A DNA stretch of 64,000 nucleotides. Source: Octopus vulgaris (lineage: Eukaryota). Location of the stretch: contig OX597831.1 of the NCBI GenBank assembly GCA_951406725.2, positions 16,616,001-16,680,000 of the forward strand, written 5' to 3'. Below the pieces are notes generated by a model. That model made no database searches. It saw nothing but the letters and a program-made list of their open reading frames with translations, and was not told the DNA's origin. Shown here piece after piece: positions 60,144-63,669 of the stretch (within the stretch, counting starts at the first letter, position 1; each line of letters opens with the position of its first letter). A program made the position numbers and the translations under genes.

Positions 60144-60405
60144 TATGTTTTATTAATGTTAATATATGAAATATTTTATTCTCGCCTGCGCGATCATAAA
60201 CTAAACAAATGACATAGTTTGCTCCAAATGTCGTCAGAATATAATAATCAATTAACTACGTGATCATAAATAATTTTGAAACCGTAAAATATATTGCAAT
60301 AACAGTCCATACGTTATAATACATATCAATCCATCTAATAAGGGGAAAATATGTGTGGTCATAACAGATAAATCAACGTGGATTCGACATATTCATCACC
60401 GCAAA

Positions 60406-63400
60406 ATGAATTTACAAGGAGCTTTCAAAATAAAATATTGTCTTGTCTTAATTCTACTCACCGTTGGTAAGTCATTATAACAAACGATTCTCTTTTTACA
60501 ATTAAAACTGTTCGCGTGGTTGAAACTTTTTTCTTCGTGTCTCTTTGTATATATTATTTTACTCTTTTAGTGCACATCTCTCGCTCTCTTGTTATGTATA
60601 TATATATATATATATATATATATATATATATATATATATATATATATATATATATATATGTGTGTGTGTGTGTGTGTGTGTGTTTGTACGTATATGTATA
60701 TAATAATGAGTTCATATCAATTGCTAGTCGAATAATTTTTACGATAATAATTACATTATTATTCATTTCATTTATTCAATTTTAAATCCCAGATTTATGT
60801 TCTAAATCTTTGTACACTATGATACAAACAAACTAATGAAAAATTACTTAAATCTTCTTACTAGCTTACTTTTATTAATAATACACTGCTCTCACGATAA
60901 CTATGTTACAAAAACGTTTTACTCGTAACTCCTTAACTCATTATCTTTCTATCTCTCTCCCTCTCTCTCTCTCTCTCTCCCTGTATATATATATATCTCT
61001 TTATTTATGCATCTATCTAGCTCTCTCTATATATATATGTATGTGTTTGTGTAGATAGGTAGGTAGACATATATATATATATATATATATATATATATAT
61101 ATATATATATATATATATATATATAGATAGATAGATAGATAGATATGTAGATTGACAGATAGATAGATAGATAGATAGATAGATAGATAGATAGATAGAT
61201 AGATAGATAGATAGATAGATAGATAGATAGATAGATAGATAGATAGATAGATAGATAGATAGATAGAGGAAGTGAGACAGATAGAAAGAATTGGGAAAGA
61301 AGAAGTCTTGCACTACAAATCCCGTTGGTTCTATCAGTTTGATTCTGCCAATTTCTTTCTATAGAAGTTGTTTCCTTGTTTTCTGTTTTCTTTTCTTTTC
61401 TTTTTTGCAGCGTCTTCTTTTGCAAATCTTCCTATTGTTATGTTGCAGAGGTTTTCTCTTTATATCCAACGTTCTTTTGAAATGACGTGTAAATCTTTAT
61501 ATATAAAAGTGAAGTTGTGTGTCTGTCTCCTACGATTTAGATTCCTAACTACTCCCACATCTTGCGGTGCAGTTTAACCAAAAGCGGGTATCTTATAGTC
61601 GTGATTCATATCGAGTCATTCTGGGTATTAGCGCGCGTCTACGATGAGTCTACGATTTAAAAAAAAATTACCATCATTTTTTCCCATTTTTAATGCATTT
61701 GTTTTGCTATTACTTAAGGGAAGTAACTCTCTAAAAATGCTTATATACTTATTTCCTTTACAAACCCGAGCAACGCCGGGCGATACTGCTAGTATTTTAT
61801 ATACTCTACATTGAAAGTTTTTGGTATCAGAAATATTTTACCAGTTTTCCGTCTTGTTTCTAAGGCATTTATATTTACTGTCCGGAAGAACCTGTCGATC
61901 GTCAAAGACTTATTGAATTTATATTAACATTCAAAAAAATAAAAATAAAATTGACAAATACCCTCATTCTGAGTCACAGTGTTCCGATCGTTGATAAATT
62001 TGGCGTAGTTTGCAGATCTAATGTCGATGTCAGACGTGAGATTTAGTTTGTAGCTCATTAACAAGCAATGAGTCGAACGGTCCGTAGATAGAAATGTTAT
62101 ATATAGAATATTTTGAATAAATATTTTGTGACATGTATCATTGAGGACAACAGTGATTTAAAGGTTTGACATCCATCAATTATTTGATGATAAGGAATTT
62201 TGGTTATAGTTACTGAAACTATAATTGATGTTATTGCGCTTCACGTAAATTCCATTCGGTGATGAAAGGTGATGTTTCAACAAATCTTTTAGGAAATATA
62301 ATCTTCAAAGATGTCAATTTGATGAATTGCAGTGATTTTATTAATTGACAATTACGTAGTGTAAAAATAGTTTGGGTATCTCTTATGAAACTACAGGTAT
62401 CTATACGACAAATTCCTGTTTATCACTACACAATCAGTTATATAACTATTAATATCGTGCAGGAACACCGTATTTCGTTATCGAACGATAATATACTAGA
62501 AAGTATATTAAATGTTTTATACGATAACACTGTAATTTATCCTGTTATATCTAGAGTTTTCTGAAGAATTTATTGCCAGCACTAATTTTGTTACGATGTT
62601 TTATATCTGAGACACCTGATGTATACAACAACGATGTTGGCTTTAACTTCTAATGCAAATCTGTAGAGGTAACCTTAACAAAATAATTATTTAACACTCA
62701 ATATTCATTAAGTTTATATTCGTTTGCCATGTGCATTATATAACTGTATTGCATGGTGGTAAATTTAAATAAAGGATTACATCACTGACAAAATTCTGTG
62801 GTTTGTCTACCACCTTTGATATTATCTGATGCTTTTCTAATAATCACGTTTCCTATATAGCACATCTATCAACAATGATGTGAGATAATGTTTATGGGTT
62901 GTTTTCGAAGTGTTTAATGTTTACTAAATGTTATTTAAAAAACATATTCCTGATTGAAGTAGGAAAAAGCTTCCCAATATTGTTTTCATTTGCATTCTTT
63001 CTGTGTTTTCTGAAAGGTAAAACGATTTCACACAAAAATGCAGAAAGACATTAGAGAATGTTCATTGCAACAGAATATTTCATTCAGTGTGCTGTTCGTA
63101 AAGGTTTCTCTCAGAGAACTACAAATAAACAATGCCCACCCACACCCACACCCAGAAATATATCACTGACAAAATCCTGTGGTTCATATATATATATATA
63201 CATATATATATATATATATATATATATATATATATATATATATATATATATATATATATATATATATATATATATGCAGCACGGACTTTGTCAGTGAACA
63301 GGTCGCGGATTTTAGCGACGAAAATATTTTGACAAATTAAACTTAAATGTTGGAGTGAATCGAACGGCTTTTGTGTGTTTCTTAAATGGCTTATAAACAC

Positions 63401-63669
63401 CTTCCACGCTGCAATTGTTTTCGTTTCAGCACACGATCTCAGATCAAATTACTTGCTATGCGAGTACATCTCCGTAATATATATACATATATATATACAT
63501 ATATATATATATTGCATGGAGTATTCAATGCCATATCACGAAATCACAAGTTATAATCATGTTTCAAATGTTTAGGTGACGTGATGTCCGCCGATTGCGT
63601 TTCTTTAGCAGCAGACATGTGCCCTGATGCCACGGTGAATTTTACAATAATAAACCCTGAATTCTGCAG
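60406..63669 (+). CDS. Partial spliced gene, paralog 4 of the same family (continues past window end)
   Basis: Signal-peptide exon 60406-60466 (MNLQGAFKIKYCLVLILLTV-G|gtaagt, phase 1) and exon 63576-63669 (DVMSADCVSLAADMCPDATVNFTIINPEFC-AG|gtatat). It shares the ADC-x7-C...FC motif, the phase 1/2 boundaries and the GTATAT donor with copies 1-3. Confidence 0.75.
61068..61265 (+). repeat. (TA)n + (AGAT)n compound microsatellite
   Basis: Directly visible. It is one of many (TA)n, (GT)n, (GA)n and (ATT)n tracts in the window. Confidence 0.95.
61494..61792 (+). mobile_element. Short non-autonomous Helitron-like element
   Basis: A|TCTTTATATATAAAAG ... CCCGAGCAACGCCGGG hairpin ... CTAG|T. Confidence 0.75.

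Follow-up and report, generated by a model that had tools for sequence, protein, structure and literature searches.

Two exons in an Octopus vulgaris gene cluster as the probable start of a fourth, strongly diverged gene for a predicted six-cysteine surface protein

Introduction

Ly6/uPAR proteins are defined by a ten-cysteine LU domain with the motifs LxCxxC and CCxxxxCN and are encoded by three exons, with the mature domain in the last two, as outlined in the accessible part of PMC4839075. The octopus locus described here shares with them, as far as that text goes, small products, a predicted signal peptide in exon 1, a disulfide-rich ectodomain, a predicted GPI signal in the last exon, an arrangement in tandem clusters and the absence of a cytoplasmic tail (PMC4839075). 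By contrast, measured against the same description, the octopus copies have six instead of ten mature cysteines and neither LxCxxC nor CCxxxxCN, and copies 1 to 3 comprise five coding exons, not three. Whereas Ly6/uPAR proteins form three-finger beta loops, low-confidence models of the ~30-residue exons of copy 4 are helical. The octopus family is Ly6-like in layout and not a member of Ly6/uPAR.

ShKT domains of molluscs, too, have six cysteines in a short domain and enter the secretory pathway (PMC6409789, available part). The distance from the first to the sixth cysteine amounts to 49-53 residues in octopus compared to a 35-residue motif in the ShKT description of that source, which places the octopus copies outside ShKT. 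The octopus exon pieces had no Pfam match. ShKT domains end with a C-x3-C-x2-C pattern that is absent from the octopus copies. The octopus copies may resemble uncharacterised six-cysteine GPI-anchored proteins of lophotrochozoans and nematode DUF19/T20D4.11-like domains, in which C-x6/7-C helices occur in pairs and a GPI tail is present.

The window, i.e. the whole 64,000-nt stretch of contig OX597831.1 that was analysed, is AT-rich eukaryotic DNA and contains microsatellites and three long direct repeats. Two exons in it are likely to be the start of a strongly diverged fourth gene copy.

Gene structure of copies 1 to 3

In the three complete copies (Table 1), every acceptor is AG and every donor GT, the exon junctions have phases 1/2/0/0, and no internal stop is present. 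A four-exon model was abandoned when the region from exon 3 to the last exon in copy 1 was compared with that in copy 3: Each contains five phase-0 candidates, among which one pair is homologous, a 39-nt linker exon. The cysteines of copies 1-4 are spaced C-x7-C-x10..14-C-x8-C-x7-C-x11-C, and the C1-C6 span comprises 49 residues in copies 1/2, 51 in copy 3 and 53 in copy 4, the values for copy 4 being based on the inferred splice.

Table 1. Coordinates of the gene copies and associated features in the window
Feature	Position	Strand	Length	Remarks
Copy 1, five coding exons	7840-7885, 15720-15801, 16916-17003, 20471-20509, 24508-24567	+	104 aa	
Copy 2, five coding exons	31364-31409, 33915-33996, 35111-35198, 38664-38702, 42376-42435	+		protein same as copy 1
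Copy 3, five coding exons	45394-45439, 47620-47707, 49114-49201, 52035-52073, 54332-54391	+	106 aa	
Linker exon of copies 1, 2 and 3	20471-20509, 38664-38702, 52035-52073	+	39 nt	phase 0-0; carries GPI omega-like site
Copy 4 exon 1, coding part	60406-60466	+	20 codons + 1 nt	predicted signal peptide; phase-1 donor GTAAGT at 60467
Cysteine-free segment	61411-61450	+	40 nt	phase 1/2; in P0004 in place of exon 2; donor GTTTTC
Copy 4 exon 2	63576-63669	+	94 nt	phase 1 in, phase 2 out; AG acceptor; donor GTATAT at 63670; ADC-x7-C-x14-C
NFT N-glycosylation sequon	63638-63646	+		copy 4 only; absent from copies 1-3

Downstream of the sixth cysteine, copies 1-3 have about 10 linker residues, the tripeptide S-N-A or N-N-A and a spacer of six residues, followed by a hydrophobic tail free of charges. 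A GPI signal has been described, in the available part of PMC2571997, as an omega residue (S, N, D, G or C) ~20-30 residues from the end with small neighbours, followed by a spacer and a hydrophobic tail, and with a linker of ~11 residues. In a purely rule-based scan, the C-termini of copies 1-3 matched the layout given there: 22 residues follow the omega-like site, and the mean hydropathy of the tail is 2.0. In copies 1/2, a Lys and not a small residue precedes the omega candidate. GPI anchoring is predicted with fair confidence, and the family is likely to consist of ~105-residue GPI-anchored six-cysteine proteins.

The exons of copy 4

Exon 1 of copy 4 starts with an ATG at 60406, and its 61 coding nt specify a basic and then a hydrophobic stretch. 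It is the sole hydrophobic one among six phase-1 ATG..GT(A/G)AG candidates between 54400 and 63560, and its donor is also used in a database model, P0004 (residues 81-100, see below). A sequence-only reading of the locus had proposed a signal exon with a phase-1 GTAAGT donor, which can be read at exactly this place. It had let the copy begin at 60368; this position is 38 nt 5' of the ATG, and no transcript-start mark was seen there.

For exon 2, the same reading had named the ADC-x7-C..FC pattern, phase 1/2, the GTATAT donor, a longer C2-C3 loop and an NFT sequon, all of which are present. The donor hexamer is identical to that of exon 2 in copies 1-3, and the loop comprises 14 residues versus 10, 10 and 12 in copies 1, 2 and 3, respectively.

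How far these features exceed chance depends on what is required of the exon. A loose spacing C-x7-C-x8..16-C arose by chance in 210 of 300 simulated regions, the stricter DC-x7-C-x8..16-FC in none of 300. Without splice information, exon 2 of copy 4 has no significant protein similarity to copies 1-3 within the window: A profile of exon 2 of copies 1 and 3 found it with E=16, i.e. at noise level, among 2766 six-frame segments. When the splice phase is imposed, it scores 47, compared to 18 for the best of 1821 background exons, which overlap one another and are not independent. Among all 1836 open phase-1/2 AG..GT candidates on both strands, only the exons of its paralogs and sub-variants of these rank higher, and none of 10000 shuffles equalled its score. 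A weak resemblance to exon 2 at 6274 (score 18, two cysteines) was rejected as background. Thus, exon 2 of copy 4 is beyond chance once gene structure is imposed, but not by protein similarity alone.

The E value of the profile and the loose cysteine spacing are what speaks for a chance look-alike at 63576 in the intron of an unrelated gene that starts at 60406. Against it stand the first rank above the 1821 background exons and, as independent evidence, a segment further downstream whose phase, length and cysteine spacing agree with the prediction (see below), and it is considered very improbable. The combination of a signal exon ending in phase 1 and a phase-1/2 exon with DC-x7-C..FC, together with the exon-aware rank, supports the proposal that copy 4 is a paralog. 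We regard it as very likely that it is a true paralog of copies 1-3 and as probable that it is functional.

Structure models of single exons of copy 4 yielded a helix over C1-C2 (pLDDT 64, pTM 0.28) and one long helix (pLDDT 72, pTM 0.31). These models of ~30 residues hint weakly at a six-cysteine domain that may be helical.

Expression was approached via assembled contigs. Contigs of four presumed-RNA runs from four studies (X1, X4, X9 and X13) covered 0 of 29 bins each in the compared stretch 63513-64000, outside of which exon 1 of copy 4 is located; this result is uninformative on expression. Over 60300-64000, 17 presumed-RNA runs had a share of 0.06-0.10 and three other runs one of 0.42-0.48, and no run is on record as RNA.

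The database model P0004 and exon 3 of copy 4

P0004 (CAI9735838.1 / A0AA36BKL5) is a 'hypothetical predicted protein' of O. vulgaris. It was one of five matches when 1.84 billion representative sequences were searched with a profile built from the translations of five exons. Its E-value stems from an exact match to exon 3 of copy 3, itself one of the profile sequences, and does not count as independent evidence of homology. The other four matches (P0003, P0005, P0006 and P0007) were discarded as repetitive proteins aligned over 12-16 of 27 positions.

Residues 1-113 of P0004 are identical, letter for letter, to five stretches of the window in their order on the plus strand: 47204-47254, copy 3 exon 3, copy 3 exon 4, copy 4 exon 1 and the cysteine-free segment 61411-61450. 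Judged by this match, the window stems from O. vulgaris or something almost identical to it. The sequence beyond residue 113 is not found in any of the six frames of the window. P0004 has no signal at its N-terminus, and its Atlas model has a pLDDT of 0.33. It is likely to be a mis-built chimera of copies 3 and 4 in which exon 2 of either copy is missing, i.e. an annotation error, and the use of 61411-61450 is likely to be a gene-prediction error. According to the accessible part of 10.1101/2023.05.16.540928, an O. vulgaris annotation combined transcript, protein and ab initio evidence into a consensus; P0004 may derive from it.

Nevertheless, P0004 is informative on what follows downstream. 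Since the segment 61411-61450 ends in phase 2, the next exon starts in phase 2. Residues 115-143 correspond to 29 codons with a phase-2 start, the same length as exon 3 of copies 1-3, with which they align without gaps: They have retained C-x7-C-x11-C as well as one Lys and the Tyr in the second position. When this segment is joined to exon 2 of copy 4, the C3-x8-C4 spacing of copies 1-3 is restored. It scores 66 versus 19 for the best of 1541 background candidates, and one of 10000 shuffles reached 66. A phase 2-0 exon with C-x7-C-x~11-C had been predicted beyond the window; at the protein level, P0004 bears this prediction out with regard to the phase-2 start and the cysteine pattern. These data support that copy 4 extends beyond the 3' end of the window. 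Its transcript would be spliced from exon 1 to exon 2 and on to the exon-3 segment known from P0004. The predicted layout, in which a hydrophobic last exon was to follow, proved incomplete, as copies 1-3 also have the 39-nt linker exon ahead of it.

The last 84 residues of P0004 contain no linker-like or tail-like stretch, and the best linker score was matched by 64% of shuffles; for this reason, the anchor proposed for copy 4 is taken over from its paralogs. The same lack of a hydrophobic tail behind the exon-3 segment, along with last exons that are absent from the window, would fit a true paralog that is secreted without an anchor, e.g. a disulfide-rich peptide in skin, mucus or salivary secretions, possibly antimicrobial or directed at prey. 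In the parts of the sources at hand, anchored and secreted members are mixed in Ly6/uPAR clusters (PMC4839075), and possibly lineage-specific peptides are expressed in coleoid salivary glands (PMC4280546). However, all three complete paralogs have GPI-like signal ends, the tail of P0004 is uninformative because P0004 is chimeric, and the exon pieces match no toxin or antimicrobial family. A secreted copy 4 is regarded as unlikely.

Apart from P0004, protein searches yielded no relative; the queries were single exons of 26-30 codons, with which distant relatives would be missed. Pfam returned no family for 5/5 exon frames and 3/3 proteins, scanned as half-domains only. The single exons gave four rows among PDB sequences (E 0.57-2.8), none of them credible, and blank results or TM<=0.40 in the ESM Atlas, which shows neither novelty nor absence. 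Rfam had no match, nor did one 27-nt pattern in metagenome contigs. Homologue searches limited to proteins of 71-2000, 17-146 and 8-146 aa produced 1, 7 and 2 candidates, respectively, none of which was scored. In the freely accessible literature, no title or abstract opening describes this family; its genes might be listed in cephalopod tissue-expression or venom tables of subscription journals or of supplements to bioRxiv preprints. Clustered small GPI-anchored disulfide proteins are a familiar kind, whereas this family is unnamed in the resources searched: A family of small multi-exon surface proteins is present in the searched protein collections only as one chimeric model.

Divergence of the cluster

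Copy 4 had been called anciently diverged, with introns dissimilar to those of copies 1-3. The dissimilarity was confirmed: A masked blastn comparison of 55301-64000 with 1-55300 produced 15 rows with E<=1. The copy 4 intron accounts for 6 of these, which are short (26-73 nt), and none is positionally homologous. The 150-nt exon flanks of copy 4 are 56-76% alike to those of copies 1-3 (<70% in 11 of 12 comparisons), which is near the background of 58.7+/-4.4% for unrelated pairs. At the protein level, exon 2 of copy 4 has 7-8 of 26-28 residues in common with that of copies 1/3, exon 3 has 6-8 of 29 and the signal 3 of 15. Between copies 1 and 3, the corresponding counts are 14/26, 12/29 and 15/15, and their linkers share 3/13. 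As copies 1 and 3 differ at about half of their exon 2-3 residues and still share introns, low protein identity cannot date copy 4. Its age is relative: Copy 4 predates the split of copies 1 and 3, since its introns can no longer be aligned. Ancient divergence holds in this sense, and no date follows from the low protein identity.

The retention of six cysteines and splice phases in a gene whose introns have no homology points to purifying selection. This bears on the question of whether copy 4 might be a pseudogene or the remainder of a gene, with exons 1-3 surviving in a truncated or silent locus. Such a fate would agree with a five-exon structure that is not recovered in the database model and with an unstable cluster that has transposon remnants between and within copies. 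A long-dead copy, however, would be expected to lose its open frames, six cysteines and canonical splice sites, all of which persist here even though intron similarity is lost. We consider a pseudogene slightly less likely still than a secreted product.

Copies 1 and 3 are 98-100% identical at the nucleotide level in exons 1 and 5, but 77% in exon 2 and 71% in exon 3. Compared to copy 2 (30506-43049), copy 3 (44556-54996) is a mosaic of near-identical leader and anchor exons and ectodomain exons with 71-78% identity. Exon 1 and intron 1 are mostly 92-100% identical, the region around exon 2 81-84% and the sequence directly after it 94-99%; exon 3 has ~77%, parts of the later introns 76-97%, and exon 5 with its 3' flank 98-100%. 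The same holds for copies 3 and 1, where exon 2 matches at 63 of 82 positions and the sequence right behind it at 149 of 150. This mosaic might result from gene conversion that leaves out the exons of the ectodomain or from assembly polishing across repeats. For exons 2-3 of copies 1 and 3, pN/pS is 0.94 (bootstrap 0.52-2.0, 55 codons), a value at which relaxed and diversifying selection are indistinguishable and positive selection is not shown. An internal repeat of exons 2 and 3 is unproven, as only 2 of 9 pairs were below 1% of shuffles.

Copies 1 and 2 (13534-21601 versus 31730-39813) are 98% identical and encode one protein sequence. They may represent a very recent duplication or, in view of the heterozygosity of 1.22% reported in the accessible part of 10.1101/2023.05.16.540928, an uncollapsed haplotype.

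Proposed function

On balance, we favour the reading that copy 4 is a functional diverged paralog and that the members of the cluster are GPI-anchored six-cysteine surface proteins, likely engaged in molecular recognition. Among the conceivable roles, recognition of a microbe, a gamete or the surface of another cell is put first, at slightly below even chances.

The precursor would enter the ER, where its signal would be cleaved near A/T-D-C. Three disulfides may then staple a small, probably helical domain of ~50 residues. In the ER, the tail would be exchanged for GPI, and the product would be displayed on the outer membrane as a ligand-binding module of roughly 60 residues. With no cytoplasmic part, it could signal only via a partner. 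The constant leader and anchor exons and variable ectodomain exons of copies 1 and 3 suggest a different partner for each paralog. The longer loop and the N-glycan site of copy 4 would provide a separate specificity.

Octopus chemotactile receptors derive from nicotinic acetylcholine receptors (nAChRs), which was counted in favour of another role: The cluster could encode accessory modulators of membrane receptors, e.g. nicotinic-type or chemotactile ones, like GPI-anchored Ly6 proteins. The architecture of Ly6 modulators (small, disulfide-rich, GPI-anchored and clustered) is present, and nAChRs are typical Ly6 targets according to the available part of PMC4839075. On the other hand, the octopus protein, with six cysteines and no CCxxxxCN, does not have the marks of a three-finger protein, and a pN/pS near 1 in the ectodomain fits a conserved endogenous partner less well. 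We consider a modulator role improbable, more so than a pseudogene.

The deep branch of copy 4 fixes the key positions of the family, which are the six cysteines, the A/T-D-C start, F-C and the Tyr after C3, and yields a usable profile for scanning cephalopod genomes. To our knowledge, few gamete or immune recognition molecules are known in octopus; the ectodomains, if they are diversifying recognition modules, are candidates for such functions. As a bolder proposal, which we rate as no better than that of a secreted copy 4, the cluster would belong to a family of octopus recognition proteins that is so far undescribed, and whose members would be hypervariable, GPI-anchored and built on a six-cysteine helical fold of their own. 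Their ends would be kept uniform by conversion and their ectodomains distinct by selection, copy 4 would represent a deep glycosylated subfamily, and the cluster would continue beyond the window. If true, this would mean a dedicated cephalopod cell-surface code for the recognition of gametes, self/non-self or microbes.

Surroundings of the genes

Several elements accompany the gene copies. Intron 1 of copy 1 is 7834 nt long, versus 2505 and 2180 nt in copies 2 and 3, and contains, in this copy only, long open stretches on the minus strand (8152-11271), which resemble a LINE endonuclease/reverse transcriptase. Broken reading frames that are presumably retrotransposon-like are located 5' of copy 1 (1908-5614) and between copies 3 and 4 (57224-58530). 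At the junction of units 1 and 2, two near-perfect palindromes of ~1.8 kb each adjoin (26787-28548 and 28696-30509; 95% and 98%, respectively), and the junction of units 2 and 3 is a (TA)n run near 44539-44658. A dispersed repeat at 59737-60126, which in our assumption resembles an octopus SINE, lies ~280 nt 5' of the ATG of copy 4; its last 47 nt have an exact copy at 51813-51859.
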